Assembly (NCBI GenBank): GCA_025054755.1
Contig: JANWZH010000002.1
Location: 1 to 41,195, forward strand
Direction of reading: 5' to 3'
DNA: 41,195 nt
Origin: Patescibacteria group bacterium
GTDB taxonomy: Bacteria; Patescibacteriota; Minisyncoccia; UBA6257; 2-01-FULL-56-20
The position numbers and the translations under genes were made by a program. The notes below the pieces were generated by a model, which saw nothing but the letters and a program-made list of their open reading frames with translations, made no database searches and was not told the DNA's origin. The first letter of the stretch is position 1. Every line of letters begins with the position of its first letter. Of this stretch, positions 9,120 to 39,663 are shown one piece after another.

Positions 9120-10660
<1,541 letters not shown>

Positions 10661-10853: not shown

Positions 10854-11234
10854 ATGAATGATAATCAGCCTAAGATTTTTATTATTGAAGATGATAAATT
10901 TTTATCATTAGTTTTGAAGGGTAGACTAGAAAGAGAGGGCATAAAAGTTTTTCAAGCTTTTGATGGCAAAGAAGCTTTAGATCTTTTAAAACAAGAAATT
11001 CCAGATTTGATTTTATTGGATTTAATTATGCCAAACATGAGCGGTTTTGAATTTTTAGAAAATTTAAGACAAGATCCGCAATATGCTTCAATTCCAGTAG
11101 TAGTAATTAGTAATTTGGGACAAGAAACAGATGTCCAAAAAGCTAAAACTTTTGGTGTAATAGAATATTATGTTAAAGTTAGAACGTCGATTGAAGATTT
11201 AATATCAAGAATAAAAGAAATTATTCAAAAATAA
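10854..11234 (+). CDS. Single-domain response regulator (CheY-like receiver)
   Basis: 126 aa. Acidic pocket EDD near the N-terminus, phospho-acceptor context LILLDLIMP, then VISNLG and K (VKV). No output domain. Confidence 0.85.
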   Translation: MNDNQPKIFIIEDDKFLSLVLKGRLEREGIKVFQAFDGKEALDLLKQEIPDLILLDLIMPNMSGFEFLENLRQDPQYASIPVVVISNLGQETDVQKAKTFGVIEYYVKVRTSIEDLISRIKEIIQK

Positions 11235-11235
11235 T

Positions 11236-11553
11236 ATGATTGATAAAAAATTAATTCCACAAATTAAAACAGGGATAAAAGTTAGAGTTTATTCTACTCT
11301 AAATAAAGAACCGCTATCTCCATTTGAGGGTATTGTTATTGCTAGAAAGCATGGTAATGAACCAGGAGCAACTTTTACAGTACGTAGCATTATTTCGGGG
11401 GTTGGCGTTGAAAAGGTTTTTCCAATTTATTCTCCTGCTATTTCAAAATTAGAAATTATTGCTAAGCCCAAAAAGGTTAAAAGATCTAAACTTTATTGGA
11501 TTAGATCTGCTTCTGGGACAAAAATTAGAAAAAGACTTGGGGTTTCTATTTAA
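11236..11553 (+). CDS. rplS: 50S ribosomal protein L19
   Basis: 105 aa with the L19 signature pattern (G..V.V......EG......FEG.VIA.....GA.TFTVR....GVGVE..FP..SP....IE). Confidence 0.92.
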   Translation: MIDKKLIPQIKTGIKVRVYSTLNKEPLSPFEGIVIARKHGNEPGATFTVRSIISGVGVEKVFPIYSPAISKLEIIAKPKKVKRSKLYWIRSASGTKIRKRLGVSI

Positions 11554-15606: not shown

Positions 15607-16806
15607 ATGCTTTATCATTATTTAGCTTCTGATAATCAAGGGAAAATATATGAAGGCAATTATGATGCTGAAAACATTAATGATGTTTTAGTATATTTAT
15701 CTGGTTCTGGTTTAAAGCCAATTTCGATTAAAGCTATTAAGATTATAAAGCCATTAATATTTAGTCAATCTATTAAACTTTCAGATAAAATATTTTTAAT
15801 GAAATATTTATCTTTAATGTTGCAAGTTGGAACAGATCTTTTGTCGGCAATTAATATTTTAATTTCAGATTTACAAGGATCTGGTATTCATAATTTTTTA
15901 ATTGAAGTTCGTGAAAATTTAACCAAAGGGAGACCATTTTATGAAGCTTTTGCCAAACATCCTAGATCATTTTCTATAGTGGAAACTAATATTATTAAAG
16001 CAGCTGAGGCTTCTGGTAATTTACAAAAGACTTTTGAAGATTTGAGTGAGTCTTTACAACGTGAAGCTGAAATTAGGGGGAAAATTCGTTCAGCTTTAAT
16101 TTATCCTATTATTTTGCTTATAATGTCTTTAGCTATTTTTTTCTTTTTATCAACTTTTGCTTTGCCTAAAATTGCTAAGGTTTTTAATGAATCAGGAATA
16201 GAACCGCCAACATTTTCTAGAATTGTTTTTACAATAGGACTTTTTATTAGTGATCATTTTGCAATTATTTTATTTTTATTATTAATAATTATTTCTTTTT
16301 TAATTTATTTTTTTGGCTTTAATAATTTTGGCAAAACATTAATTCGTCAATTTATTAGTAGATTGCCATTTGTTAAGAAAATTTATTTAGATATTGCTAT
16401 TCAAAGATTTACCTCAACATTTTCTTCTTTATTAAAAGCAGGAATTCCAATTATTGATTCTTTAAAAATTACAGCTGATGTTGTTGGCCATCAAGAAATA
16501 AAATTAGCTCTTTTAAGAATTGCTGAAGAGGGTTTAAGTAGAGGATTAACTGTAAGTGAATCTTTTAAAAAAGAAATTATTTTCCCACGCGTAGTTACAA
16601 ATTTAATTGCTATTTCTGAAAAAGCTGGTCATTTAGATGAGGTTTTGGGCACGTTGGCTAAATTTTATGCATCTAATATTGATTCGACAATTAAATCAGT
16701 AGTAGCTGTTATTGAACCAATTTTACTTATTTTAATGGGTGGTTTAGTTGGTATTATTGCTTTATCTATTGTTATTCCAATTTATCAATTAGCAATGAAA
16801 TTTTAA
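15607..16806 (+). CDS. pilC: Type IV pilus assembly platform protein PilC / type II secretion system F family
   Basis: 399 aa. Duplicated T2SS-F domain architecture with three TM segments; motifs AGIPIIDSL, EASGNL, EKAGHLDEVL and the C-terminal PIYQL-type tail. Confidence 0.88.
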   Translation: MLYHYLASDNQGKIYEGNYDAENINDVLVYLSGSGLKPISIKAIKIIKPLIFSQSIKLSDKIFLMKYLSLMLQVGTDLLSAINILISDLQGSGIHNFLIEVRENLTKGRPFYEAFAKHPRSFSIVETNIIKAAEASGNLQKTFEDLSESLQREAEIRGKIRSALIYPIILLIMSLAIFFFLSTFALPKIAKVFNESGIEPPTFSRIVFTIGLFISDHFAIILFLLLIIISFLIYFFGFNNFGKTLIRQFISRLPFVKKIYLDIAIQRFTSTFSSLLKAGIPIIDSLKITADVVGHQEIKLALLRIAEEGLSRGLTVSESFKKEIIFPRVVTNLIAISEKAGHLDEVLGTLAKFYASNIDSTIKSVVAVIEPILLILMGGLVGIIALSIVIPIYQLAMKF

Positions 16807-16808
16807 AA

Positions 16809-17318
16809 ATGAATCAAAATATTAAAAATTTAATAAAAAAAGGATTTAGTTTAACCGAATTACTAATTTCAGTAGCTTTAATAATGATTTTATCTATTGT
16901 TATTTTTTCTAATTTTTATAAAAGGAGAAATATTACAAATTTAAGATCAACCACTACGCAAATTGCTGCAATTTTAATGGAGGCTCGTAATAGATCAATA
17001 GCTCAAGAAAAAGATAGTTATTGGGGCGTTTATTTTGAAAATCCAACTTCGTCAAAGCCTTCTTTTAGTTTGTTTTATACATCAGATTCAAATTTTGCAA
17101 CAAGTAGTTTTAAATATATTAAAAAATATTTTTTGACTGATTTTGTTTATTATAATACTTCAACTATTCCTTTAGGAGGCAATTTAATTATTGTATTTAA
17201 CAAAGTTTCTGGATTGCCTATTAGTGTTTCTACAATTTATTTAGATTTGAAACAGGGAAATATTACAATAGCATCTTCTTCGATTAATATTAATTCTGTT
17301 GGAACAATAATTTATTAA
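16809..17318 (+). CDS. Prepilin-type N-terminal cleavage/methylation domain protein (type IV pilin or pseudopilin)
   Basis: 169 aa. Class III signal peptide KKG|FSLTELLISVALIMIL with Gly at -1, Phe at +1 and Glu at +5. Starts 2 nt after the pilC stop. Confidence 0.75.
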   Translation: MNQNIKNLIKKGFSLTELLISVALIMILSIVIFSNFYKRRNITNLRSTTTQIAAILMEARNRSIAQEKDSYWGVYFENPTSSKPSFSLFYTSDSNFATSSFKYIKKYFLTDFVYYNTSTIPLGGNLIIVFNKVSGLPISVSTIYLDLKQGNITIASSSININSVGTIIY

Positions 17319-17341
17319 TGTTTAAATAATATTAGTATAAA

Positions 17342-17986
17342 ATGAAAGTAAAATTAAAATATTATTTAAAAAATTTAAATTTTAATAATGGTCAATCTTT
17401 GGTCGAAGTTTTGATTGCCTTATCAATAGGAATTATTTTTGTTTTAGGAACAATAATTGCAGTACAAATGTCTCTAAAAACAGGAAGAGATTCTGAAAAA
17501 ATTCAAACTAGTGCTATGTTGGCTAGGGAATTAATGGATAATGTTAAAATTTTTGCTGATTCAGGCTGGTACAATGTAGCTAATTTAGCTACGACTTCTA
17601 TTAATAAATATTATATTAATACATCTACTCCTTTTACTGCAATATCTGGAATAGAAATAATAACTATTGGAACAACTACATATAATAGATATTTTTATTT
17701 GGATGATGTTTACCGTGATGGTAGTGGTTCTATTGTAAATTCTGGAGGAACTTTTGATCCATCAACCAAAAAGTTAACTATTGTTTATAAATGGGTTGGA
17801 GGAAATGATAGATTTTTAACAACCTATATTACTCGTTCTAAAAATGTTATTTTTAATCAAACTGATTGGTCTGGTGGAGGGGGGCAAACTGGACCAATTA
17901 CATCAACGAATTCAATGTTTGCTACTTCTACTAATATTGACTTTTCAACTACAACTGGCTCAATTAGATTAAGGTTAGGTTATTAA
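17342..17986 (+). CDS. Prepilin-type minor pilin-like protein
   Basis: 214 aa. NNG|QSLVEVLIALSIGIIFVL with Glu at +5, a Ser/Thr-rich globular part and a C-terminal TDWSGGGGQTGP motif. Confidence 0.65.
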   Translation: MKVKLKYYLKNLNFNNGQSLVEVLIALSIGIIFVLGTIIAVQMSLKTGRDSEKIQTSAMLARELMDNVKIFADSGWYNVANLATTSINKYYINTSTPFTAISGIEIITIGTTTYNRYFYLDDVYRDGSGSIVNSGGTFDPSTKKLTIVYKWVGGNDRFLTTYITRSKNVIFNQTDWSGGGGQTGPITSTNSMFATSTNIDFSTTTGSIRLRLGY

Positions 17987-17993
17987 ATTTTTA

Positions 17994-18021
17994 TTGAATA
18001 TAGTTTTTATTTTGATATAAT
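17994..18021 (+). promoter_or_regulatory. Putative internal promoter with leaderless geometry (TTGAAT-16 nt-TATAAT-6 nt-ATG)
   Basis: TTGAAT at 17994-17999 and TATAAT at 18016-18021. The A of the ATG at 18028 lies 7 nt downstream of the -10 element. Confidence 0.4.
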
Positions 18022-18027
18022 TAAAAT

Positions 18028-18894
18028 ATGAAAAATAAAATCAATTTGATTATCATAATTATATTTATTATTTTTTTAACAGCACTAGCCGCAACTAATA
18101 TTGATTCAAGTAATCGTTGGGCCTGGAATGATTTAATAGGCTGGATTGATTTTTATTCTACAAATACAGTTAATGTTAATTCTCAACAATTAACTGGTTA
18201 TGCAAGTTCTTCTGCTGGAGATATTTCTTTAGATTGTGCAACAACTCGTAATGGCAATATATGTTCTCAAAGCAATTATAAAGTTTTAAATGATGGAGGG
18301 GGTAATTTATCTGGTTGGGCTTGGAATGATAATTATGGTTGGATTAGTTTTTGTGGTGGTCAAAATACTGTAAATTGTCCAGGTTCTATAATTTATCAAG
18401 TTAAAATTGACCCAAATACTGGAGATTTTTCAAATTATGCTTGGAATGATTTATTAGGTTGGATTAGTTTTTGTGGTCAGCCTGGAGGTGGATTAGGTTG
18501 TGCATCTACAACTTATTCATATAAAGTAAATACTTCTTGGCGTGCTACAGCAACAATAGGTTATTTAGATTCAAGTATTTATGATACTGGAATAAGCGGT
18601 GGGGCACAGATAAATTCTATTTTATGGAAAGGAGATTTGCCTTCTGGCACTCAGGTTAGATTTAAAATAGCCTCTTCTAATTCATCTAATGGGCCATGGA
18701 ATTTTTTGGGCCCAAATGGCACAACAAATGATAATGATTATTATGGACCAGTTTTTCCTAATCAGTCGTATCAAATAAATTATTTATTGCATAGTAATCA
18801 TCGTTATTTTAGATATAGAGTCATTTTAGTTTCAGATCAAGCTCAACAAAATTCGCCTAGAATTGATGATATTATAATTAATTGGAGTCCTTAA
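18028..18894 (+). CDS. Secreted Cys/Trp-repeat protein of the pilus cluster, function unknown
   Basis: 288 aa. Sec-type signal peptide (hydrophobic core, ALA|AT). Three copies of W-A-W-N-D-x-x-G-W-I-x-F, each followed by a Cys pair, plus a C-terminal domain of about 120 aa. Confidence 0.7.
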   Translation: MKNKINLIIIIIFIIFLTALAATNIDSSNRWAWNDLIGWIDFYSTNTVNVNSQQLTGYASSSAGDISLDCATTRNGNICSQSNYKVLNDGGGNLSGWAWNDNYGWISFCGGQNTVNCPGSIIYQVKIDPNTGDFSNYAWNDLLGWISFCGQPGGGLGCASTTYSYKVNTSWRATATIGYLDSSIYDTGISGGAQINSILWKGDLPSGTQVRFKIASSNSSNGPWNFLGPNGTTNDNDYYGPVFPNQSYQINYLLHSNHRYFRYRVILVSDQAQQNSPRIDDIIINWSP

Positions 18895-19320
18895 ATGTTT
18901 TTTAAAAAAAAAATAAAATTTGATAAATTAAATAGTGGGCAAGCTGCTCTTTCAACAATTATTTTAATTGGTGGAATTATAGCATTAATTACTATAACAT
19001 TAGTAATTATTATTTCTTCTTATGCAACCTCAGCTTATAGTTATCAAAATTCGCAAAGAGCTTTAGCTGTAGCAAATGCAGGAGCGGATGATGCTTTATT
19101 GAGATTAGTTAGGAACAAAGACTTTGAGAATACGTCAGGTTATATTGTTTATTCTGATTCAGATTCAGCAACTGTAAAAGTTGTTCAAGATATTGCAAAT
19201 AAAAAAGCAATTATACTTTCAGTAGCAAATATATTAGGTTATAATAAAAAGGTTAGAGCTATTGTTTCGATCAATAATGATGGCGAGGTTAGATTAATTA
19301 AAAGAGAGCAAATAGAATAA
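18895..19320 (+). CDS. PilX-like / atypical prepilin-like protein
   Basis: 141 aa. NSG|QAALSTIILIGGIIALITITLVIII has a Gly then hydrophobic helix like a class III signal but Ser instead of Glu at +5. The start abuts the upstream stop. Confidence 0.5.
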   Translation: MFFKKKIKFDKLNSGQAALSTIILIGGIIALITITLVIIISSYATSAYSYQNSQRALAVANAGADDALLRLVRNKDFENTSGYIVYSDSDSATVKVVQDIANKKAIILSVANILGYNKKVRAIVSINNDGEVRLIKREQIE

Positions 19321-19334
19321 AAATTTAATAAACT

Positions 19335-20864
19335 ATGCAGTATAAAGAGAGATATAAAAAATTTTTAAATATATTTTTAAAAACTTTAAAAGTTAAATCA
19401 ATTTCAGGAGGATTAGAAATTTCTGATTCTTGGTTAAGATATGCTTATTTAGAAAATGATAAATGGAATTTAATTGGAGTACGTTTGCCTCAAAATGTTG
19501 TAGTTAATGGTCAAATTAAAAATTATGATTTATTTATTAAAACTTTGAATGAATTAAGAAATAAAATTTTTAATGGAAAAGATTCTAAAAAAGTATTAAA
19601 TGTTATAGTATCTTTAAGTTCAATCGATGTTTATAGTCAAATTTTTACTTTGCCAATTATTGAAGGAGAGAATTTAGAAAAAGCTATTAAATTAAATATT
19701 AAAATGCTTTCTCCTCAAGAAGAAAATCAAACTTATAGTAGTTGGCAGATTGTAAGCCGTGATCAAAAATTGATGCGACTTGAAATTTTATCTGCTTTTA
19801 TTAATAAAGAAATAATTAATGATTTTAAAAAAGCTTTAACTGAAACAAAATTTATGCCTCGTTCAATTGAATCATATTCTTTTTCTTTAACAAGATTTTT
19901 TGTAAAAAAAGTTAAAAATTTTCAAATTAGTAAAAATTATTTAATTTTAAATATTGATGATAGCGGAATTAAAAGTTTAATTATTCGTAATGGAAATTTA
20001 TATTTTAATTATTTTTCTTTTTGGTCAGAAATTTTTAAAGATGAAAATCAAATTAGTTGGGATAAATTCGAAATTTTTCTTATACGTCATTTACATCAAG
20101 TTGTTAATTTTTATAATTCTCGTTGGGCAGATGAAATAGATGGCTTATTTTTAATTTCGCCAGTTTTTGTTTCAGAAATTAAAAACATTATCATACAAAA
20201 TTTTGATTTAAAAATTTTAGATTTAGATTTAGATTTTCCTCAGAATATTTCTTCGGAATGGTTTATAGCAATTGGATCTTATTATAGAAATGAAATTTCT
20301 CCTAAAGAAGATCAAGAATTAAATTTATTGGGCGGAGATGCTTCCCAAATGTTTATTCAAAATCAGATTTTACAATTTATACAATTTTGGCGTTTAGCTG
20401 TTATATCTTCAGCAATTTTTATTTTATTAAGTATTGTTATTGGCAATTTATTTTTAAATAATATTTTAAATTCTTTAAAAATAGAACATTCAAATATTAA
20501 TTCAGCAGTTCATGCCAAAGAAGCAAGGGATTTTCAAATTAAGATAGAAGAATTTAATAAAGTAGTTGATATGGTTAGTATGGTTAATAATAATTATTTA
20601 AATAGATATTTTGTTTTACAAAAAATTATTGAAAAGATAAGTAATAACGATATTAATATTAAAAATTTATCTTTTAATAATGATTTATCAGTTAAAATTT
20701 CTGCTGTATCAAAAAATGAAGAAAATATTTCTAAATTTAAAAAAAATTTAGAAAGTGATAATTTTTTTAGAAATGTTAACTTACCTTTTTCGGAAATTAA
20801 ACCTTATGAGGATGGTAAAACATTTTTTATAAGTTTTTCAATTAATCCATCAACTATACAGTAA
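19335..20864 (+). CDS. PilM-like actin-fold ATPase fused to a TM segment and a PilN-like C-terminal domain
   Basis: 509 aa. The N-terminal 330 aa or so resemble PilM (GLEISDSWLRYAYL..., VIVSLSS..VYSQIFTLP..EGENLEKAIKLN). A TM helix (WRLAVISSAIFILLSIVIGNLFL) is followed by a coiled-coil-rich tail. Confidence 0.6.
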   Translation: MQYKERYKKFLNIFLKTLKVKSISGGLEISDSWLRYAYLENDKWNLIGVRLPQNVVVNGQIKNYDLFIKTLNELRNKIFNGKDSKKVLNVIVSLSSIDVYSQIFTLPIIEGENLEKAIKLNIKMLSPQEENQTYSSWQIVSRDQKLMRLEILSAFINKEIINDFKKALTETKFMPRSIESYSFSLTRFFVKKVKNFQISKNYLILNIDDSGIKSLIIRNGNLYFNYFSFWSEIFKDENQISWDKFEIFLIRHLHQVVNFYNSRWADEIDGLFLISPVFVSEIKNIIIQNFDLKILDLDLDFPQNISSEWFIAIGSYYRNEISPKEDQELNLLGGDASQMFIQNQILQFIQFWRLAVISSAIFILLSIVIGNLFLNNILNSLKIEHSNINSAVHAKEARDFQIKIEEFNKVVDMVSMVNNNYLNRYFVLQKIIEKISNNDINIKNLSFNNDLSVKISAVSKNEENISKFKKNLESDNFFRNVNLPFSEIKPYEDGKTFFISFSINPSTIQ

Positions 20865-29816: not shown

Positions 29817-31268
29817 ATGAGAGATGACCTTATTGAAGAACGTTTTAAAAAAATTGAAATATTAAAAGAAGCTGGCGTAGATCCGTATCCGGCTCGTTGC
29901 AAAAAAACTCATAATATATTAGATGTAATTAAAAATTTTAATTCTTTTAAGAAAAATAAAAAGAATATTTGGCTAGCTGGAAGATTGATGAGTATTAGAG
30001 ACCAAGGCAATTTAATTTTTGCTGATTTGGTTGATGAAACTGGCAAATTTCAATTAGTTTTTAAAAAAAATAATATTTCTAATTTAAATTTTTGGAAAAA
30101 AATTTTAGATCGTGGAGATTTTATATCAGTTTATGGTTTTGTTTTTAAAACCAAAAAAAGAGAAAAAAGTTTAGAAGTAAAAAAAATTCAATTATTAACT
30201 AAAAGTTTAAGGCCATTGCCAACTGAATGGTTTGGTATTGAAGACGAAGAAATTCTTTTAAGAAGACGTTATTTAGATTTAATTTTAAATCAAGAAACAA
30301 AAAATTTATTCATTAAAAAGGCTATTTTTTGGTCAACTTTTAGAGAAGAATTAAAGAAGGCCGGATTTTTAGAGGTAGAGACGCCAGTTTTGGAACCAAT
30401 TCCAGGAGGAGCAGAAGCAGAACCATTTGTTACTCATCATAATGCTTTAGATGAAGATTTTTATTTAAGAATTTCTTTAGAATTATCTTTAAAAAAGATT
30501 TTAGTTGGTGGATTTGAAAAAGTTTTTGAAATAGGTCGTATTTTTAGAAACGAAGGAATAGATAGAGAACATCTTCAAGATTATACTCAATTAGAATTTT
30601 ATTGGGCTTATCATGATTATAACGATTTAATGAAATTTATTGAAAAAATTTATAAAATTGTTATTAAAAAAACAGTTGGCAAATTGGAAACTATTTGGAA
30701 TAATCAAAAAATTAATTGGTCTAAAAAATGGCCAAAATTGGAATATATCAAATTATTTGAAAAATATAATAAAATTAATCCATTAAAAGTTAGTAGAGAT
30801 GAATTATATAATAAAGCCATAGAACTAGGTTTAAAACCAGAAGATTATGCTGGTAAAGGAAGATTAATTGATTTAATATTTAAAAAAACTATTAGACCTA
30901 AATTAATTCAGCCTTGTTTTTTAATTAATCCACCGGTTGAAATTGAACCATTAGCTAAAAGAGTTCCTGGTAATCCAGATTTAGTTGAAAGATTTCAGGT
31001 TGTAGCTTGTGGCACAGAATTAGGGAAGGGGTTTTCGGAATTAAATGATCCAATAGATCAAAGACAAAGATTTGAAGAACAAATGAAATTAAGAGAAAAA
31101 GGAGATAAAGAAGCTCAAATGCTAGATGAAGAATTTTTAGTTGCTTTAGAATATGGAATGCCGCCTACTGCTGGATTTGGCATTTCAGAAAGATTATTTG
31201 CAGTTTTAATGAATAAATCAGTCAGAGAATGCGTTTTCTTCCCTTTAATGCGTAAGAAAAATCAATGA
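29817..31268 (+). CDS. lysS: Lysyl-tRNA synthetase, class II
   Basis: 483 aa. N-terminal OB fold (GRLMSIRDQGNLIFADL), motif 2 FRNEGID..H..DYTQLEFY and motif 3 GFGISERL. Confidence 0.93.
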   Translation: MRDDLIEERFKKIEILKEAGVDPYPARCKKTHNILDVIKNFNSFKKNKKNIWLAGRLMSIRDQGNLIFADLVDETGKFQLVFKKNNISNLNFWKKILDRGDFISVYGFVFKTKKREKSLEVKKIQLLTKSLRPLPTEWFGIEDEEILLRRRYLDLILNQETKNLFIKKAIFWSTFREELKKAGFLEVETPVLEPIPGGAEAEPFVTHHNALDEDFYLRISLELSLKKILVGGFEKVFEIGRIFRNEGIDREHLQDYTQLEFYWAYHDYNDLMKFIEKIYKIVIKKTVGKLETIWNNQKINWSKKWPKLEYIKLFEKYNKINPLKVSRDELYNKAIELGLKPEDYAGKGRLIDLIFKKTIRPKLIQPCFLINPPVEIEPLAKRVPGNPDLVERFQVVACGTELGKGFSELNDPIDQRQRFEEQMKLREKGDKEAQMLDEEFLVALEYGMPPTAGFGISERLFAVLMNKSVRECVFFPLMRKKNQ

Positions 31269-32743
31269 CTCTTTTTATAAAAAACGCTAAAATTTTAAAT
31301 ATTGATAAAAATAACAAATTAGATATTTTAATTAGTGGCAATAAAATATCAGCTATTGGTAATTTTTATAATAAAAAAGCTGATAAAATTATTGATGCTG
31401 ATGGAAGTTATGTTTCTTATGGTTTTATTGATATTTATAATGAATTAGATCATAATTTTAAAATTTTTTCTTCAGGTTTTGATATTGTTCAAGAAGGAGT
31501 TTTAAATGTTTTAATTGGTCATAGTGGAATATCGTTAGTACCAATTTTTTATTATTTTGATGGTTTTAAAAAATATTCTTCTGGTTATGGTATTAATTTA
31601 AATTGGCAAGATTTAAATCAATTTAATGATTTTTTGTATAAACAAAATAAAAATTTGAATTTTAAAACTTTGGTTGGTTTTCAAAATTTAAAACATTTAA
31701 TTTTAAGAAATAAAAATCGTAATTTAAATCAGAAAGAGTTTTTAATATTTTTAGATATCTTAAATAATATTTTAAAAAGTGAAATTTTAGGCTTATCTCT
31801 TGATTGGGAAAATATTGAATTAGAATTTTTGACCTTAAAACAATTAGAAAATATTGCTAATACTATTTCAAAAAATTCTAAAATTTTATCTATTACTTTG
31901 CCAAAAGAAAAAAATATTGAAAATATAGTTAAAATTTTAATCAATATTATATCTAAAACTAATGTTAAAATTTTATTGAATAATTATTTGGGTGGTTATT
32001 TAAATCATCAAACTAATTTAAATATTTTAAAATTATTAGAACAATTTTATCCCAATATATTTTTTACATTAAATCCTTACAAAATAGAAAATTATTTAAT
32101 TGATAAATTTTTGCCACTAAGAATTAAAAAAAATAGTTTAGAAAATATTTTAGAAATTATTTCGGATGAATGGTTTATAAAAAGAATTATAAATGAACTT
32201 CCTAATTTTAATTTAGAAGATATATTGATTTTTCAAACTGAAAACAATTTAAAGCATCATACTTTAAATAATAAACAACTTAAAGAAGTAATGAATTTAT
32301 ATGAAATTGATAATCCGAAATTGGCTTTATTAAAAATAATGTTAAATACTAAATTAAGAAGTGTTATTTTTGAAAAAAATATTGACTTTGACATTTTAAT
32401 TGATGCTTTACTTTCTAAAAATTCTTTTATTGGTTCTGGTTGGATATATTTAGATAATACTAAAAAAGTTTTTATAGATTATATTAATTTAATTTTATCT
32501 TATAAATTAATGAATTTTGATAATTTAATTCAAAAAATAACTTTATGCCCAGCAAAATTTTTAGGATTAAAAAATTATGATAATTTTCAAATAGGACGTG
32601 AGGCAGATTTAGTTGGTTTTGATATTATAAATAATGAAATTAAAATTAAATTTGTTATTTATCAAGGTAAAATTGTTATATTAAATAATAAGATTGAAAA
32701 TCAATTTCAGAAAAAGATAGAGCATGATTCTTTATTGAATTAA
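31265..32743 (+). CDS. D-aminoacylase-like amidohydrolase-superfamily protein with degenerate metal ligands
   Basis: 492 aa. The N-terminus (FIKNAKIL......ISGNKISAIGN....ADKIIDADGSYVSYGFID) and the C-terminus (PAKFLGLKN...IGREADLVGFD) match the N-acyl-D-amino-acid deacylase family. The expected HxH is IYNE and the GNCG box is GHSG. Confidence 0.55.
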   Translation: MTLFIKNAKILNIDKNNKLDILISGNKISAIGNFYNKKADKIIDADGSYVSYGFIDIYNELDHNFKIFSSGFDIVQEGVLNVLIGHSGISLVPIFYYFDGFKKYSSGYGINLNWQDLNQFNDFLYKQNKNLNFKTLVGFQNLKHLILRNKNRNLNQKEFLIFLDILNNILKSEILGLSLDWENIELEFLTLKQLENIANTISKNSKILSITLPKEKNIENIVKILINIISKTNVKILLNNYLGGYLNHQTNLNILKLLEQFYPNIFFTLNPYKIENYLIDKFLPLRIKKNSLENILEIISDEWFIKRIINELPNFNLEDILIFQTENNLKHHTLNNKQLKEVMNLYEIDNPKLALLKIMLNTKLRSVIFEKNIDFDILIDALLSKNSFIGSGWIYLDNTKKVFIDYINLILSYKLMNFDNLIQKITLCPAKFLGLKNYDNFQIGREADLVGFDIINNEIKIKFVIYQGKIVILNNKIENQFQKKIEHDSLLN

Positions 32744-34457: not shown

Positions 34458-35033
34458 ATGATTATTGTTTTTACAGGAGATGGAAAAGGTAAAACTACAG
34501 CTTCTATTGGTCAAATGATTCGTGTAATCGGTCGAGGCAAAAACGCTTTAATGCTTCAATTTATTAAAGGTCCTTGGCGATCTGGCGAAGATGAATTTTC
34601 TGATATTTTTAATTTTTTTAAATTGAATAATTTAAAGTTAAAATATAAAAAAAATAAATTAAAAAAACTTGGTAAATTTAAAATTATTAAAGGCGGATTA
34701 GGCTTTGTTGGAATTTTAGGAGATAAACTACCTTTTAAAAAACACAAATTAGCTGCCCTGAAAACATTTGAATTATTTAAAAAAGAACTTAATAAAAATA
34801 AATGGGATTTAATTGTGCTAGATGAAATTAATGTTGCTTTAAATTTAAAATTATTAAAACTTAAAGATATTATTTCAACTATCAAAAACTTCCCCAAAGA
34901 GAAAATATTGATTTTATCAGGCAGAGGAGCTCCAAAACAATTAATTAAATTAGCTGATTTAGTTACTGAAACTAAATCTATTAAACATCCATTTGATAAG
35001 GGGATTTTAGCTAAAGTTATAGTAGAATTTTAG
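34458..35033 (+). CDS. cobO: CobA/CobO/BtuR-family ATP:cob(I)alamin adenosyltransferase homologue
   Basis: 191 aa. P-loop FTGDGKGKTTA, QFIKG, LDEIN and the C-terminal ADLVTE...KHPFDKG motifs in family order, with a Lys-rich insertion in the middle. Confidence 0.75.
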   Translation: MIIVFTGDGKGKTTASIGQMIRVIGRGKNALMLQFIKGPWRSGEDEFSDIFNFFKLNNLKLKYKKNKLKKLGKFKIIKGGLGFVGILGDKLPFKKHKLAALKTFELFKKELNKNKWDLIVLDEINVALNLKLLKLKDIISTIKNFPKEKILILSGRGAPKQLIKLADLVTETKSIKHPFDKGILAKVIVEF

Positions 35034-35061
35034 TTGACTAAATTATAAAATTGTTTATAAT
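35034..35061 (+). promoter_or_regulatory. Putative promoter (TTGACT-16 nt-TATAAT) upstream of the sigma-r4/HARE-HTH gene
   Basis: TTGACT at 35034-35039 and TATAAT at 35056-35061, 24 nt before the ATG at 35086. Confidence 0.45.
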
Positions 35062-35085: not shown

Positions 35086-36114
35086 ATGATTTTAGTAAAT
35101 AAATTAATAGAAAAATTAATATCTGATTTAAATAATAAACAAAAAGAAGTTATTATTAAAAGGTTTGGTTTAGATAATAATAATTTTAAAACTCTTTCAG
35201 CACTAGGAAGACAATTTAATGTCACTCGTGAAAGAATTCGTCAAATTCAAAATACAGCCTTAAATTTAATTAAATTAAAAGCCCAAAATGATTTAGGCTT
35301 TCAAGAATTTATAAATCAAGCTGAAAAGATTTTAAGGAATAATGGTGGCCTAACTAGATTAGATATTTTTTTAGAAGAATTAAAAAAAATATTTAATGAT
35401 TTAAATAAAAATAATTTATTATTTTTAATCAATCTTTCTTCTAAAATTAAATTTTATGAAGAAGATAAAAATTATTACTCTTTTTATTATTTAGAAAATA
35501 GTGATTTAAAAAATATTTTTAATTTTGTAAATAAATGGATTAATTTATTAAAATCTAAAAAGAAATTGGTTTTAGATGGTGGATATCATAAGTTATTTGA
35601 TGAATTTATTAAAAAAGAAAAAGTTCCTAAAAATTTTTCAATTAATTTTATAAGTATTTCTAAAAAAATAAAAGTTAATACATATGGTGATATTGGCTTA
35701 GTAGATTGGCCAGAAATTGAACCTAAGGTTATTCGCGATAAAATTTATTTAGTTTTAAAAAAGAAAAAGCAACCAGTTCATTTTAGTCATATTAGCAAAT
35801 TAATTAGTGATGCTAATTTAAGTGTTAAACAAATTTCAACCCCAACTATTCATAATGAATTAATAAAAGATAAAAGATTTGTTTTAGTTGGTAGAGGAAT
35901 TTATGCTTTAAGAGAATGGGGCTATGATGATGGGACAGTTAAAGATATTATTATAAAGCTTCTAAAAAAAGAAGGTCCAATGAAGTCAAAAGAAATTGTT
36001 TTAGCGCTTCAAAAAGATAGATTTTTTAAGCAAAATACTATTTTAGCTAATTTGCAAAATAAGAATTATTTTAAAAGATTGTCTGATGGCACTTATAAAA
36101 TTAAAGAAGCCTAA
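35086..36114 (+). CDS. Sigma-70 region 4-like HTH protein with C-terminal HARE-HTH / winged-helix domains
   Basis: 342 aa. The N-terminus KQKEVIIKRFGL....KTLSALGRQFNVTRERIRQIQNTALNLIK is a classic sigma region 4.2 HTH. The C-terminus PVHFSHISKLI...TIHNELIKDKRFVLVGRGIYALREWGY matches the HARE-HTH pattern. No sigma region 2. Confidence 0.65.
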   Translation: MILVNKLIEKLISDLNNKQKEVIIKRFGLDNNNFKTLSALGRQFNVTRERIRQIQNTALNLIKLKAQNDLGFQEFINQAEKILRNNGGLTRLDIFLEELKKIFNDLNKNNLLFLINLSSKIKFYEEDKNYYSFYYLENSDLKNIFNFVNKWINLLKSKKKLVLDGGYHKLFDEFIKKEKVPKNFSINFISISKKIKVNTYGDIGLVDWPEIEPKVIRDKIYLVLKKKKQPVHFSHISKLISDANLSVKQISTPTIHNELIKDKRFVLVGRGIYALREWGYDDGTVKDIIIKLLKKEGPMKSKEIVLALQKDRFFKQNTILANLQNKNYFKRLSDGTYKIKEA

Positions 36115-36152: not shown

Positions 36153-37454
36153 ATGATTTATTATGTCATAAATAGTTTTTTGAATATTTTTTTTATTTTT
36201 TTAAAATTAAGCTGGTGGTTTTGGCTATTTTTAATTTTAGTACCTTTATTTAAATCAACATTTTTGCATTGGAGACAAGAAAGATTTCGCTATGGTAAAT
36301 CTTTTAATATGATTGTTTTAGAAATTAAAATTCCTAGAGAAATTAAACAAAATCCTAAAGCAATGGAACAAATTTTAGTAGCTTTGCATTCATTACGTAA
36401 TGCTCCTGGAACTTTTAGAGAAAAATGGATTGATGGAGAAATTACGGTTTGGTTTTCTTTAGAATTAATAAGTATTGGAGGAAATATAAAATTTTTTATT
36501 CGTTGTCAGGAATCTAAAAAATCTTTAGTGGAATCAGCTTTTTATTCTTATTATCCAGAAATAGAATTGATTGAAGTTGATGATTATGTTTTGAATTTGC
36601 CTCAAAATATGATTGAAGTTGAAGATCGAGGAATGGATTTATGGGGCACAGAAATGTTTTTAGCTAAAGAAGAGGCTTATCCTATTAAAACTTATTCTGA
36701 TTTTGAATCTTCAGAAGAAACAAAACAATATGACCCAATATCTTCTTTTTTAGAATTTTTTGGCAAGATTCAAAAAGAAGAATTTTTGGGTTTGCAATTT
36801 ATTCTTGCTCCAGCTGCTCCTGATTGGAATAAAAAATATGAAAAATTAGTAGAAGATTTAAAAAAGAATAAATCATCTAATTCAAATAGTCCAGATCAAA
36901 ATGCCCCGCAATCTTATAACCGAACACCAAAAGAAATAGATGTTTTAAAAAAGGTTGAAGAAAACTTATCAAAACTAGCATTTAATACTTTAATTAGATT
37001 TATATATTTATCTCCAAAACCAATTTTTAATAATGCTTATGCGAGAATAGGTTTAAATAGTTCATTTAATCAATATTCTTCCATAGAATTAAATTCGTTT
37101 AAAGCAAATAAAGAAGTTACTACCGGGGCAAAAATTTGGGATCCTCCATATATTTTCCCTCAAAAAAGAAGTTGGTATCGTAAGGCGGTTTTTTTGAATG
37201 ATTATATTCAAAGAAATTGTCCCCCAGAAACCTTTATGGGTAAATTAATTACTTCTTATATTTTTAGATTGAATTTTGGTTCTAAAAGATTCTTAATGAC
37301 AACTCAATGTTTAGCAACGTTGTTTCATCCACCGACTTCTTTAGTTTTATTAAACGAAACACATATAGAGAAAATTCAAAGTCGTAAAGTTGGCCCGCCG
37401 CCTAATCTTGCTATTTTTGGAGAAGAAAAAGATATTGAAAAATTTTATGAATAA
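36153..37454 (+). CDS. Membrane-anchored hypothetical protein (gene 1 of a three-gene ATPase module)
   Basis: 433 aa. N-terminal hydrophobic segments (aa 1-35 or so), then a large domain with no catalytic motif I recognise. The C-terminus carries PPPNLAIFG. The stop overlaps the next start by 8 nt. Confidence 0.7.
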   Translation: MIYYVINSFLNIFFIFLKLSWWFWLFLILVPLFKSTFLHWRQERFRYGKSFNMIVLEIKIPREIKQNPKAMEQILVALHSLRNAPGTFREKWIDGEITVWFSLELISIGGNIKFFIRCQESKKSLVESAFYSYYPEIELIEVDDYVLNLPQNMIEVEDRGMDLWGTEMFLAKEEAYPIKTYSDFESSEETKQYDPISSFLEFFGKIQKEEFLGLQFILAPAAPDWNKKYEKLVEDLKKNKSSNSNSPDQNAPQSYNRTPKEIDVLKKVEENLSKLAFNTLIRFIYLSPKPIFNNAYARIGLNSSFNQYSSIELNSFKANKEVTTGAKIWDPPYIFPQKRSWYRKAVFLNDYIQRNCPPETFMGKLITSYIFRLNFGSKRFLMTTQCLATLFHPPTSLVLLNETHIEKIQSRKVGPPPNLAIFGEEKDIEKFYE

Positions 37455-37959
37455 TCGAATTGATTTACAAATTATTTTTGGAAAATTTTTTGATTTATAT
37501 AATTTAGTAAGTTGGATTTTTATTATTTTAGATTTAATATTAATTTTTGGTTTTGCATTTTCTTTTTATCAAGCTTGGAAATTTAGGCCTAAAATTGTTT
37601 CTAAAAGAATGAAAACTCCAATAGTAAGTTTGCAAAAAGAAATTTATCGTGCTAAGTGGTTTGATATAATAAATAAGTTTGAGGTTGGTACTTTAGAAGC
37701 TATGAAAATAGCATTAATTCAATCAGATAATTTAGTAGATTTAATTTTAAAAGATTTAAAAATTAAGGGTCAAACACTAAGTGAAAAATTATCTAAAATT
37801 CATCCTGAAAGCTTAGAATCTTTAAAAGATTTATGGGAAGCTCATCATATAGTGGGTGATATTATACAAAATCCAAATTATGATTTAAATAAAGAAGATG
37901 CTCAAAAAATTTTAAGTTATTATGAAAGATTTTTAAAAGAAATTGGAGTTATTATTTAA
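37447..37959 (+). CDS. Small single-TM helical protein (gene 2 of the module)
   Basis: ORF track 37390..37959. The first ATG, at 37447, gives 170 aa with one TM helix (VSWIFIILDLILIFGFAFSFY) and a helical soluble domain containing LWEAHHIVGDI. Confidence 0.65.
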   Translation: MNNRIDLQIIFGKFFDLYNLVSWIFIILDLILIFGFAFSFYQAWKFRPKIVSKRMKTPIVSLQKEIYRAKWFDIINKFEVGTLEAMKIALIQSDNLVDLILKDLKIKGQTLSEKLSKIHPESLESLKDLWEAHHIVGDIIQNPNYDLNKEDAQKILSYYERFLKEIGVII

Positions 37960-37970
37960 TAAATTTTAAA

Positions 37971-39302
37971 ATGTTAAAAGATAATAAAATTCAAAGAGTA
38001 AAATATGCTTCGCCTCCGCCTGGTCTTCCAATTTATGGTCAGGTTAATCACAAAAAGGCAACTTTTATAGGAATAACTAATTATATTTCTAGTTTAGAAG
38101 AAAAAAAATTTTTATTTGCTATAAAAAGATCGGACAGGAAAAATCATATTAATATTGTTGGTAAAAGTGGAGTTGGAAAATCTAAAATGCTTGAAGTAAT
38201 GATTAGGCAAGATGTTTTTAATGATTATGGGCTATGTTTATTTGATTTTAATGGTGATGTTGTAAATAATTTACTTGATTTCATTCCAGAAAATAAAGTT
38301 GATGATGTAATTTTAATAGATTTTTCGAATAAAAATTGTAATATATTGTTTAATCCATTGTATGATATTAATCCAAATTTTAAGCATCATTTTGTTAATG
38401 GTTTAATTGAGGTTTTTAAAAATCAATTTGGAGAAAATTGGAGTTGGACACCAAGAATGGAACATTTATTTAGATTTGCCTTGCTATTATTATTAGAATA
38501 TCCTGAAGCTACGTTAAAAGACATGATTTTTATTTTAAATGATAAAAATTTTAGAGAAAAAATTATAAATTATTCTAATGATAAAATTGATATTTTAATT
38601 AAGAATTTTTGGCTAAATGATTTTGAAAATTTATCTAAATTTAAAAATTTTAATGACGAAGTTATGATTCCTTTAATTAATAAAATTTCTAATTTAATGT
38701 CTAATCCATTTTTGAATAATATTTTTAGTAATAAAAAAAATAAAATTGATTTTAATGATTTTGTTAATAATAAAAAAATTGTTTTAATTAATTTAGCTAG
38801 TCAATTTTTAGGTAAAAATGAAGCTACTTTTTTGGGTTTAATTTTGCTTTTAAAATTAAAAGAAGCAGGGTTTTTGCGAGTAGGTTTAAAAAATATAAGT
38901 GAATTTTATTTGTATATTGATGATTTTTATATAATGAACAATAAAATTTTTGAAGATTTTTTAATTAATTCTAAAAAATACAATTTTTATTTAACTCTAT
39001 CTTATAATCAAATTAGTCAATTTGATCAAAGTGTAAGAAATAATATTTTAAATATGGTAGGAACAAATATTATATTTAGAATTACAAACGAAGATGCTCA
39101 AATTTTTAAGAATGAAATGTCTCCAGTTTTTGATGTTAAAGATATGATTAATTTAGGCAATGAAGAATTCTATATTAAAATGATAGTTGATGGCGAAACA
39201 AAAGATCCTTTTTCAGCTAATAGTTTAAAAATTTTAAAACCGCCTTATCCTTCAAATAAAAATAAAATTATTAGTAATTGTTTAAAAATTTTATGTGAGT
39301 AA
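37971..39302 (+). CDS. Anchor-less TraG/VirD4/TrwB-like (FtsK-HerA superfamily) P-loop NTPase (gene 3 of the module)
   Basis: 443 aa. Walker A GKSGVGKS (38160-38183), Walker B-like FYLYIDDF, a YNQ box and a TNIIFR...EDAQ box in the order seen in type IV coupling proteins. No TM segment. Confidence 0.6.
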   Translation: MLKDNKIQRVKYASPPPGLPIYGQVNHKKATFIGITNYISSLEEKKFLFAIKRSDRKNHINIVGKSGVGKSKMLEVMIRQDVFNDYGLCLFDFNGDVVNNLLDFIPENKVDDVILIDFSNKNCNILFNPLYDINPNFKHHFVNGLIEVFKNQFGENWSWTPRMEHLFRFALLLLLEYPEATLKDMIFILNDKNFREKIINYSNDKIDILIKNFWLNDFENLSKFKNFNDEVMIPLINKISNLMSNPFLNNIFSNKKNKIDFNDFVNNKKIVLINLASQFLGKNEATFLGLILLLKLKEAGFLRVGLKNISEFYLYIDDFYIMNNKIFEDFLINSKKYNFYLTLSYNQISQFDQSVRNNILNMVGTNIIFRITNEDAQIFKNEMSPVFDVKDMINLGNEEFYIKMIVDGETKDPFSANSLKILKPPYPSNKNKIISNCLKILCE

Positions 39303-39306
39303 TTTT

Positions 39307-39378
39307 GCCAGAGTAGCTCAGTGGTAGAGCAGTCCCTTCGTAAGGGAAAGGTCGTGGGTTCAAATCCCACCTCTGGCT
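39307..39378 (+). tRNA. tRNA-Thr (anticodon CGT)
   Basis: Acceptor gccagag/ctctggc, D-arm gctc/gagc, anticodon loop tTCGTaa, T-arm gtggg-ttcaaat-cccac. Starts 4 nt after the ATPase stop. No CCA. Confidence 0.85.
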
Positions 39379-39485
39379 CAAAATATTAATTTTTATTAAA
39401 AATAAATAAAATATAAATAATAAATGTTTTATTTTTTATTGGAAATACTTGAAAAATTTTTATTTTTAGTTTTATATATAAGTAG

Positions 39486-39570
39486 GCCCGGGTGGCGGAA
39501 TTGGTATACGCAAAGGACTTAAAATCCTTGTCCCCTCGTGGGATTGTGGGTTCGAGTCCCACCCCGGGCA
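39486..39570 (+). tRNA. tRNA-Leu (anticodon TAA)
   Basis: Type II tRNA: acceptor gcccggg/cccgggc, anticodon stem aagga/tcctt with loop cTTAAaa, long variable arm, T-arm gtggg-ttcgagt-cccac. No CCA. Confidence 0.9.
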
Positions 39571-39663
39571 CAATTTATCTTCTATTGTTATAAAATTTTA
39601 ATTGAATTCAAATAATGATCTTGTTAAAATTACTTTATTACTTTGAAACAATTTTTAATTTCT

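Follow-up and report, generated by a model that had tools for sequence, protein, structure and literature searches.

Three tightly spaced plus-strand genes (genes 1 to 3) occupy positions 36,153 to 39,302 of contig JANWZH010000002.1 from a Patescibacteria group bacterium (GenBank assembly GCA_025054755.1), of which the first 41,195 nucleotides were analysed; this whole stretch is termed the window below. Gene 1 encodes a membrane-anchored protein of the Pfam family DUF8128, gene 2 a small membrane protein that is probably HEPN-like, and gene 3 a soluble ATPase that is structurally of the TrwB/VirD4 type, and directly upstream lies gene 0, which encodes a sigma-r4/HARE-HTH DNA-binding protein. 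The favoured reading, of moderate confidence, is that the trio elaborates, in one lineage, an old Parcubacteria cluster that has been inherited vertically and encodes a split type IV coupling protein (T4CP), with a probable link to a type IV secretion system (T4SS). The coordinates and junctions of the three genes are as first described. Gene 2, read from its ATG, overlaps gene 1 by 8 nt, the start of gene 2 and the stop of gene 1 both lying in ATGAATAA, and a gap of 11 nt, read directly from the sequence, separates gene 2 from gene 3. A longer TTG start for gene 2 at 37390 was rejected because the orthologues align from the ATG at 37447, where the occupancy of their alignment begins.

The products of genes 1 and 3 both match halves of fused ATPases of ~800–900 aa from Firmicutes phages and plasmids, and for this reason the two are considered to form a split coupling protein. 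In phrog_5156 (824 positions) gene 1 matches positions 79–209 and gene 3 positions 383–775, and both genes align with gp156 of phage G (825 aa), gene 1 at E=8e-5 and gene 3 at E=1e-20. A tblastn search of gene 1 against phage genomes gave no match, the phage link having come from PHROGs and structure only. With gp156 as the tblastn query, 89 plasmid records were recovered, mainly from Clostridium, Bacillus, Staphylococcus and Streptomyces and including a few haloarchaea. On the 27.5-kb B. subtilis plasmid NZ_CP154917, an 885-aa protein is recognised by the DUF8128 hidden Markov model (HMM) at 1.4e-23 (aa 53–311) and by the gene 3 HMM at 5e-38 (aa 346–753). Its gene is followed by a Replic_Relax relaxase-type gene and by TcpC, TcpE and TcpF (NCBIfam E=3e-251), and the fused protein holds the coupling-protein position in a Tcp-type Gram-positive conjugation locus. 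The ATPase part of the fused homologues is of the T4CP/DUF87 type, not AAA_10. An 800-aa gp156 homologue is also encoded on C. botulinum pCLK (NC_010418.1, 11567–14367), with the tblastn alignment covering 91% of gp156; in this protein the HMMs detected the ATPase half only and the DUF8128 half was not detected.

On pCLK the 800-aa gene follows a gene of the TrbC/VirB2 family, which is the usual position of VirB3/VirB4, and MOB-suite labels this plasmid non-mobilizable yet assigns it MPF_T. In phage G (JN638751.1, 1196–5338) the fused gp156 adjoins the VirB4-like gp155 (P-loop_TraG, AAA_10 and a weak CagE_TrbE_VirB match) and an HNH endonuclease gene comes next. This jumbo phage carries a pair of T4SS-type ATPases, and the GenBank name 'MsbA-like' for gp156 appears wrong.

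From its AlphaFold2 (AF2) model (predicted local distance difference test, pLDDT, 87.4; predicted TM-score, pTM, 0.88), gene 3 is structurally a coupling-type NTPase of the TrwB/VirD4 class without a membrane domain. The best Foldseek match was TrwB deltaN70 over nearly the whole chain (E=4e-13, query TM-score, TMq, 0.61–0.63 and target TM-score, TMt, 0.63–0.67), followed by Cag-beta, DotL, HerA and DndH-C, and an all-alpha insertion at residues ~135–253 separates Walker A from Walker B in the model. The orthologues among the best 120 hits are ~480 aa long with 72% mean column identity, carry the domains TrwB_AAD_bind, DUF87, T4SS-DNA_transf and TraG-D_C, and are named by NCBI 'type IV secretion system DNA-binding domain-containing protein'. 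Gene 3 itself just passes the Pfam cut-offs for TrwB_AAD_bind (23.6 bits vs 20.5) and DUF87 (26.3 vs 23.2), and the NCBIfam TraD models score 18–23 bits on it, far below their cut-offs of 366–648. At the sequence level the likeness to TrwB is limited to the P-loop region; hhalign gave a probability of 88% to TrwB and 16.5% to VirB4, the gene 3 sequence alone matched no solved structure, and the family profile reached TrwB only at E=0.066. No hydrophobic segment was found in gene 3, nor any membrane segment in any aligned orthologue. The orthologue domains, the Foldseek match to TrwB and the lack of a hydrophobic segment uphold the view taken in the preliminary description, that gene 3 is a VirD4/TrwB-like NTPase without its anchor, and the motifs listed there for gene 3 were all located in the sequence.

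Walker A is strongly conserved among the gene 3 orthologues, with G64, G67, G69 and K70 invariant and K65, S66, V68 and S71 kept in at least 90%. The DD reading of Walker B, pointed out earlier, is present in the window copy and proves to be a local substitution, not a family trait: it occurs in 5/120 best hits, which are the closest sequences and form the window's small sub-clade, whereas DE occurs in 111/120. An acidic low-complexity C-terminal tail of ~40 residues, ending in EPLI, is found in 102/120 orthologues and is missing from the small sub-clade that carries the DD Walker B. The C-terminal tail of TraD binds TraM and, by analogy, the EPLI tail could dock the sigma-r4/HARE-HTH protein. 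Gene 3 does not appear to be an FtsK. Pfam FtsK_SpoIIIE matches it at E=0.23 over the P-loop region only, no C-terminal winged-helix domain was found, and FtsK is absent from its top 50 structure matches. Replacement of FtsK was also considered, and the E. coli FtsK motor had no homologue in 1.94 Mb of Parcubacteria loci; this null is uninformative, because all loci sample the same neighbourhood, and was not used.

Gene 1 belongs to DUF8128, a family of 2,596 representatives at 50% identity whose name was not met in the searchable literature. The precomputed PF26449 label is carried by the window protein itself (100% identity) and by nearly all of its best 120 hits. The name was taken from the locus tables, the model being absent from the local hmmscan copy, and the local Pfam and NCBIfam models gave no match to gene 1 or its family consensuses. 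The AF2 model (pLDDT 86.9, pTM 0.84) consists of N-terminal helices at residues 2–19 and 21–46, an alpha/beta domain at ~53–400 and a disordered tail bearing the motif described below. The hydrophobic N-terminus described earlier is present, and 0 to 3 hydrophobic segments occur among the orthologues. The soluble domain is placed in the cytoplasm by the positive-inside rule, because the basic stretch HWRQERFRYGK follows the hydrophobic N-terminus.

The large domain of gene 1, in which no known motif had been recognised, is unlikely to be of unrelated or unknown fold; gene 1 is read as the N-terminal domain of a T4SS-ATPase lineage, detached and with 1–2 membrane helices gained, and so as a T4SS-derived part itself. 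With the gene 1 model, the 14 PDB chains matched at E<=1e-3 in Foldseek were all TrwK/VirB4 from the T4SS of R388 (E=1.7e-5 to 7e-4, probability 0.99–1.00, TM-scores 0.30–0.37), the next matches being unrelated oxidases at E>=1e-2. The soluble part, of ~350 aa, fits the VirB4 N-domain (residues 15–400) in size. Independent support came from BFVD, where the model matched Bacillus phage G gp156 in its N-terminal half (E=3e-16, TMq 0.51). It also matched the VirB4-like gp155 (E=2e-6), a protein named 'component of type IV transporter system' (E=1e-4) and gp156-related proteins from phages JL and Slash. Gene 1 matched VirB4 and no TrwB, HerA or FtsK structure, and gene 3 the reverse, with VirB4 outside its top 50; because gene 3 matches TrwB and HerA but not VirB4, the part matched by gene 1 should be the VirB4-specific N-domain. 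Thus, the predicted fold of gene 1 probably resembles the N-terminal domain of VirB4, and this is a likeness at the fold level only, because the TM-scores are low and sequence-level signal is absent. A VirB4-type (AAA_10) ATPase domain does not follow covalently, since gene 1 ends after the tail motif, and the gene 1 family profile gave nothing meaningful against solved structures.

A short peptide is shared by the C-terminal tail of gene 1 and the N-terminus of gene 3. Both copies lie where they had first been noticed, and their likeness is non-random. The pattern PPxxLxI[FY]G occurs at these two sites only in the six-frame translation of the 41-kb window. The string PPP is present in no other window ORF (open reading frame), the chance expectation of the shared peptide is ~6.5e-5, and the two 27-nt segments are identical at 20/27 nucleotides. 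Both copies are conserved among orthologues: in gene 1 G423 is invariant and G414, P415, P416 and I421 are kept in at least 90%, and in gene 3 A13, P15, P16, P20 and G23 are invariant. Even in the distant set of loci described below, the DUF8128 proteins keep this tail (…K[KR]GEPPxxLP) as their very C-terminal end, and on the ATPase the N-terminal motif is confined to the short paralogue found alongside gene 2. The gene 1 tail aligns to the linker between the two domains of the fused protein from the B. subtilis plasmid. As the homologous segment in that protein leads directly into the ATPase domain, the tail motif would be a former inter-domain linker.

The genomic distribution of the cluster was followed in two sets of loci. 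When a single genome of each GTDB species was scanned for the gene 1 family, 204 species had it, and the best 80 of these together with four further loci form the 84 close Patescibacteria loci. A scan with distant DUF8128 members added at least 591 further species, of which 80 loci were analysed, from Parcubacteria lineages among which are Terry-, Moran-, Nealson-, Portnoy-, Kerfeld-, Magasanik- and Uhrbacteria. All related loci were chosen for containing DUF8128, and ORFs were called as the longest ORF. Many loci carry the title 'uncultured Candidatus Saccharibacteria' (binchicken); their proteins group with Parcubacteria lineages, and the title was taken as generic. Genes 1, 2 and 3 follow one another in this order in 81/84 close loci, so that the trio is syntenic in related genomes, and a sigma-r4/HARE-HTH gene lies upstream in the same orientation in 77/84 close and 73/80 distant loci. 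Gene 0 is the conserved first gene of the cluster, and its earlier identification was confirmed by Pfam. A nuclease domain in gene 0 was considered and rejected, the weak DUF2161 match covering an apparent second winged-helix region.

In the distant lineages the cluster is simpler. There, sigma-r4/HARE-HTH, DUF8128 and a long ATPase of 515–663 aa follow one another in 68/80 loci, and gene 2 was found in 0/80. The long ATPases carry a treble-clef zinc finger (zf_Tbcl_2, CxxC-x17-CxxC), which is absent from gene 3, and lack the PPPxLPIYG extension at their start. A second, longer T4CP-like gene also lies just downstream of the trio in 14/84 close loci. This long paralogue (~600–680 aa) stands directly after the short ATPase in some genomes; it was seen in L004 (13442–15478), L015, L047, L048, L058, L069 and others, and was absent from the vicinity of the module in the window and in its nearest long-contig relative. 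The short ATPases form a single clade with a mutual identity of 79%, and the long paralogues are jointly monophyletic with the distant long forms (58% identity), the identity between short and long ATPases being ~43%. The long paralogue is the orthologue of the sole ATPase beside DUF8128 in distant Parcubacteria, and in several genomes, L004 among them, DUF8128 and the long ATPase flank gene 2 and the short ATPase. From these comparisons the ancestral unit is taken to be sigma-r4/HARE-HTH, DUF8128 and the long zinc-finger ATPase, and gene 2 and the motif-bearing short ATPase appear to have arisen together in one sub-clade, beside the long ATPase. It had been proposed that genes 1 and 2 supply the membrane anchor or channel. 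The fusions make gene 1 the partner of the ATPase, but gene 2, absent from the distant loci, is no ancestral subunit of such an anchor or channel.

Long chromosomal contigs carry the clusters, with housekeeping genes as neighbours. SecD and SecF are encoded immediately upstream of the sigma-r4/HARE-HTH gene, ~3 kb ahead of the cluster, in L001–L004 (three long contigs, L003 being near-identical to L002), CutA1 downstream in L001, L002 and L003, and in L004 TrmD and a ComEC-type competence gene follow the long paralogue. The window and L170 have instead an M17 peptidase and a CobA-like gene as upstream neighbours, and only the three- or four-gene core is fixed.

Gene 2 has one membrane helix and a helical domain, which is placed in the cytoplasm by the positive-inside rule because KFRPKIVSKRMK follows the helix. 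An orthologue was found by phmmer in 84/84 close loci (83 distinct sequences), where a word-indexed search had given ten relatives. The HEPN signature is Rx4–6H with a polar residue after the R, located in the last helices. A core RNxxxH, within the motif W-AH--RN--VH, fits this signature and is present in 79/83 distinct gene 2 orthologues, and the window copy reads VGDIIQ there. The sister sequences P0243–P0245 keep the motif and P0242 has lost only the H. HEPN_Swt1 matches 19/56 family members (best E=1.1e-4, all sub-threshold), HEPN_Cthe2314, HepT-like_2 and HEPN_RiboL-PSP match a few members, also sub-threshold, and the family consensus is matched by DUF4145 (1.4e-3), HEPN_Swt1 (7.9e-3) and Hypoth_Ymh, all under their gathering scores; the window copy had no match to the curated HEPN models of Pfam. 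Gene 2 is thus probably HEPN-like and would be an accessory adaptor or RNase and not a core part. A profile match of gene 2 to the Rpb5 N-terminus among solved structures (E=0.015) was judged a short helical similarity. The window copy of the module is a derived one, having Walker B DD and having lost both the ATPase C-terminal tail and the gene 2 RNxxxH.

We infer docking of gene 3 on gene 1, hexamer formation, a substrate and a T4SS link as follows. Gene 1 would keep a hexamer of the gene 3 ATPase on the cytoplasmic side of the membrane, the disordered tail of gene 1 with PPxxLxI[FY]G, the former linker, serving as the docking peptide, and ATP hydrolysis would drive the recruitment or pumping of a substrate. 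A nucleic-acid substrate is suggested by the putatively co-transcribed DNA-binding protein, the sigma-r4/HARE-HTH product being a candidate adaptor or regulator. The most likely partner would be the chromosomal Patescibacteria T4SS (VirB4, VirB3, VirB6, VirB8) encoded elsewhere, with the VirB4-NTD-like (N-terminal-domain-like) domain of gene 1 providing the contact. In R388 the N-terminal domains of VirB4 mediate its dimerisation and are wrapped by VirB3 (PMC9259494), and N-domain dimerisation would therefore offer a docking route for a protein of VirB4-NTD-like fold.

Several observations favour a T4SS link. Coupling is the ancestral job of the fused form, and VirB4 itself is present in 2,417/3,035 Patescibacteria genomes. 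According to PMC12102498, T4CP homologues number 5,713 copies in 2,918/3,035 Patescibacteria genomes, ~two per genome, and t4cp genes are often located away from virB4, with 148/5,713 copies near it. Other points weigh against the favoured interpretation. No T4SS gene was found in the Pfam scans of the window and of six related loci, nor in any other of the 164 related loci, which were scanned with the four module HMMs only. T4CP homologues occur in ~500 more genomes than VirB4 (PMC12102498), and in Southlakia the t4cp is non-essential where T4SS genes are essential. These three points argue against an obligatory coupling to a T4SS. The relation of gene 1 to the VirB4 N-domain is seen by Foldseek alone, and at low TM-scores; hhalign of DUF8128 against TrwK, TcpF and gp155 gave probabilities of at most 0.5%, and CagE_TrbE_VirB and TraC_F_IV gave no Pfam match to gene 1 or the consensuses. 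No Pfam model assigns gene 2 to HEPN above its threshold, and how often the ATPase occurs without DUF8128 cannot be read from loci selected for DUF8128. A coupling-protein role for a chromosomal T4SS is at least as likely as the trio acting alone as a minimal translocation device.

Such a T4SS-independent device, close to the idea of the preliminary description, is possible though doubtful. Gene 1 and the ATPase, joined in this clade by gene 2, would form a self-sufficient inner-membrane machine that moves DNA or RNA across or along the one membrane of these cells. Its role could be nucleotide scavenging, CedD-like DNA import, DNA export or FtsK-like pumping at division, the sigma-r4/HARE-HTH protein recognising DNA. 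The tight, conserved cluster, which includes a DNA-binding protein and never T4SS genes, speaks for it, as do the dispensability of the Southlakia t4cp and the excess of T4CP homologues over VirB4; exaptation of these homologues is considered in PMC12102498. The long ATPase is also weakly like CedD, a chromosomal VirD4-like import ATPase (NCBIfam E=3e-7, sub-threshold), and ComEC lies ~3 kb downstream of the cluster in one related locus (L004). However, genes 1 and 2 provide only ~2–3 membrane helices per protomer set and no polytopic channel protein, and CedD itself has VirB4-like, VirB6-like and pilin-like Ced proteins as its partners (PMC11823120). In addition, bacteria of the candidate phyla radiation (CPR) already use ComEC and type IV pili for DNA uptake (PMC6744442), a pilus block being present in the window, and the closest fused homologue lies inside a complete conjugation locus. 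The more specific proposal, that a membrane-anchored, VirB4-N-domain-like DUF8128 scaffold, a T4CP-type hexamer and a sigma-r4/HARE-HTH subunit import or export nucleic acid across a single membrane without a T4SS, is unlikely. If true, this minimal translocase would extend the CedD idea to bacteria and link the VirB4 and VirD4 architectures as a living intermediate, serving nucleotide-auxotrophic, host-dependent cells and joined in one sub-clade by a HEPN RNase or adaptor.

Very improbable is a role in anti-phage or anti-plasmid defence, where a HerA/FtsK-superfamily ATPase would sense or translocate invading nucleic acid and activate a membrane HEPN RNase encoded by gene 2. PADLOC mad8 does match gene 3 (E=7e-9), the gene 3 model matches HerA, SIR2-HerA, DUF4297-HerA and DndH structures (less well than TrwB), gene 0 resembles region 4 of MzaA, and the gene 2 orthologues contribute their RNxxxH and sub-threshold HEPN matches. 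Yet PADLOC gives no match to genes 1 and 2, other MADS or HerA-system partner genes are absent from the window, gene 2 is missing from most of the lineages that bear the cluster, and in the window it has lost the motif while the rest of the module is intact. The cluster is single-copy and vertically inherited with fixed synteny beside housekeeping genes in at least 591 + 204 species, and its conservation, at the identities given above for gene 3 and the short ATPases, is unlike that of defence islands; vertical inheritance and conservation are the reasons for rejecting defence as the main explanation. Least credible of all is a functionless, decaying remnant of an integrated conjugative element or prophage, as might be read from the derived losses of the window copy and from homologues outside the CPR on plasmids and phages, since the three ORFs are intact, tightly coupled and as long as their orthologues, Walker A and most invariant residues are kept, D is by our own reckoning a chemically conservative residue at the second Walker B position, the composition matches the genome, no integrase, relaxase or repeats were found, and the closest long-contig relative has the same locus with the same neighbours.

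The split coupling protein has several relatives among described systems. The orphan VirD4-type T4CPs of Patescibacteria (PMC12102498) belong to the same family as gene 3 and the long paralogue; their gene neighbours are not mentioned in the available part of that article, and here they comprise DUF8128, sigma-r4/HARE-HTH and the HEPN-like insertion, with a short/long split and the tail motif. TrwB and VirD4 share the fold of gene 3 over the whole soluble part, with Walker A and B present, but TrwB has an N-terminal membrane domain and adjacent relaxase and T4SS genes, both of which gene 3 lacks. A class of T4CPs (class iii of Llosa and Alkorta, cited in PMC7431656) is recognised whose members have no membrane domain of their own and act together with a membrane protein. 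Similarly to genes 3 and 1, TraJ and TraI of pIP501 are a soluble coupling ATPase and the separate protein that brings it to the membrane; that pair is plasmid-borne and lies in a conjugation operon, whereas gene 1, by the fusion evidence, is a detached N-domain of the same ancestral protein. The fused gp156-type ATPases have the order of genes 1 and 3, a DUF8128-like N-domain and then a gene-3-like ATPase, but are single polypeptides on mobile elements, without predicted N-terminal membrane helices and with ~21–25% identity to the window proteins.

In VirB3–VirB4 (TrwM–TrwK) the small VirB3 anchors the VirB4 N-domain (PMC9259494), whereas gene 1 carries its own helices, has no sequence similarity to VirB4 and is paired with a T4CP-type, not a VirB4-type, ATPase. 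CedD/TedD (PMC11823120) are like gene 3 in being chromosomal, non-conjugative and encoded away from the machinery, and some CedD orthologues lack a membrane domain and are thought to be anchored by another protein (PMC11823120). CedD acts with CedA, CedA1, CedA2 and CedB, and a DUF8128-like partner is not described for it. A precedent for gene 2 is the Agrobacterium VBP (PMC3953389), a HEPN-fold, non-nuclease, dimeric adaptor which brings substrate to VirD4; it is a soluble protein with a nucleotidyltransferase domain, whereas gene 2, only probably HEPN-like, is membrane-anchored and has no such domain.

Orphan T4CPs in Patescibacteria (PMC12102498), membrane-domain-less T4CPs with a partner (PMC7431656) and DUF8128 as a Pfam family are already known. 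Apparently new are the pairing of DUF8128 with a T4CP-like ATPase, called obligate for loci that were chosen for DUF8128, and the fusion evidence for it; the VirB4-like fold of DUF8128 and the linker origin of the shared motif; and the membrane HEPN-like insertion together with the short paralogue, as well as the conserved sigma-r4/HARE-HTH partner. PMC12102498 acknowledges the role of the Patescibacteria VirD4-like genes, which are almost never beside a T4SS, as a question still to be answered, and their partners now make it testable. The fused homologues tie these orphan ATPases to real conjugation machinery in Firmicutes loci and to phages, the tail motif is a concrete putative docking peptide open to mutation, and a working annotation for DUF8128 is supported. 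A T4CP-type motor on a VirB4-like N-domain would also bear on the divergence of the two T4SS ATPases.

Table 1. Positions of the module genes, their motifs and the adjoining upstream features in the window.
Feature	Position	Strand	Basis or remark
Promoter-like site TTGACT-16-TATAAT, 11/12	35034..35061	+	Between the CobA-like gene and gene 0; best of the region
Gene 0, 342-aa DNA-binding protein	35086..36114	+	Pfam Sigma70 region 4 (aa 12-60), HARE-HTH (aa 220-278)
Gene 1, DUF8128 (PF26449), 433 aa	36153..37454	+	ORF list, Pfam label, AF2 model, Foldseek
Gene 1 hydrophobic N-terminus (aa 1-40), membrane anchor	36153..36272	+	Hydropathy; 1-2 predicted membrane helices
Gene 1 C-terminal tail motif PPPNLAIFG (aa 415-423)	37395..37421	+	Conserved; pLDDT <50, disordered in model
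Gene 2, 170 aa from ATG, one membrane helix and cytoplasmic helical domain	37447..37959	+	ORF list, orthologue alignment, hydropathy, Pfam
Gene 2 membrane helix (aa 20-44)	37504..37578	+	Hydropathy
Gene 2, degenerate site of motif W-AH--RN--VH (RNxxxH)	37834..37869	+	Window copy reads WEAHHIVGDIIQ; RN and H both lost
Gene 3, soluble TrwB/VirD4-type ATPase, 443 aa	37971..39302	+	ORF list, AF2 model, Foldseek, Pfam/NCBIfam
Gene 3 N-terminal motif PPPGLPIYG (aa 15-23)	38013..38039	+	Second copy of the gene 1 tail motif
Gene 3 Walker A GKSGVGKS (aa 64-71)	38160..38183	+	Motif and orthologue alignment
Gene 3 Walker B FYLYIDDF (aa 312-319)	38904..38927	+	Second acidic residue D, family usually E

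The promoter-like site upstream of gene 0 (Table 1) is a candidate start for a four-gene operon running from gene 0 to gene 3. The call is a consensus match only, and the total of promoter-like sites in this AT-rich DNA is not above that in shuffled sequences. The terminator scan found no plus-strand terminator-like site within or after the cluster up to 39700, and co-transcription of the cluster would follow from the promoter-like site and the lack of an internal terminator. Two tRNA genes lie after gene 3, at 39307–39378, 5 nt past the gene 3 stop, and at 39486–39570; both may be co-transcribed with the module, as no terminator-like site lies between. A 61-aa minus-strand ORF (39386–39571) overlaps the second tRNA gene and is probably spurious. 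On the other side of the cluster, a 113-aa TTG-start ORF (34556–34897, minus strand) lies antisense within the CobA/BtuR-like gene and is most likely an AT-rich by-product, not a gene.

The remainder of the window is core chromosome. It carries genes for FtsH, MetRS and PPDK, a 16S rRNA gene, and a type IV pilus block followed by HisRS, FtsA and FtsZ, and the other genes encode RmuC, DsbB, GreA, an aminoacyl-tRNA synthetase, an M17 peptidase, a CobA-like protein, tRNAs and a GH1 enzyme. Among 28 window proteins scanned with Pfam (25 ORFs of at least 90 aa, plus genes 1 to 3), none matched a VirB4-type, VirB6-type, relaxase or integrase family, which agrees with the preliminary description, as does the uniform GC content of ~22–26% across the window outside the rRNA gene. 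The absence of relaxase and integrase families, the vertical synteny and the housekeeping neighbours bear out its conclusion that the module is a core chromosomal system and not a conjugative element. That no pilin gene flanks the module holds for the immediate neighbourhood, but not for the type IV pilus block at 15607–20864, ~15–20 kb upstream. This block includes a PilC-like T2SSF protein (15607–16806) and a 509-aa PilN-domain protein (19335–20864), and the small ORFs between their genes could be pilins.

The 16S rRNA gene, at 9122–10660, is a complete bacterial one (Rfam 1399.6 bits) and is followed by small protein ORFs at 10854–11553. The rRNA genes appear to be unlinked, as neither 23S nor 5S rRNA gave a match anywhere in the 41-kb window. 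A 492-aa ORF at 31265–32743, which has no Pfam match at E<=1e-3, begins within the class II aminoacyl-tRNA synthetase gene ahead of it, 4 nt from the end of that gene, and owing to this 4-nt overlap the two appear to be translationally coupled.

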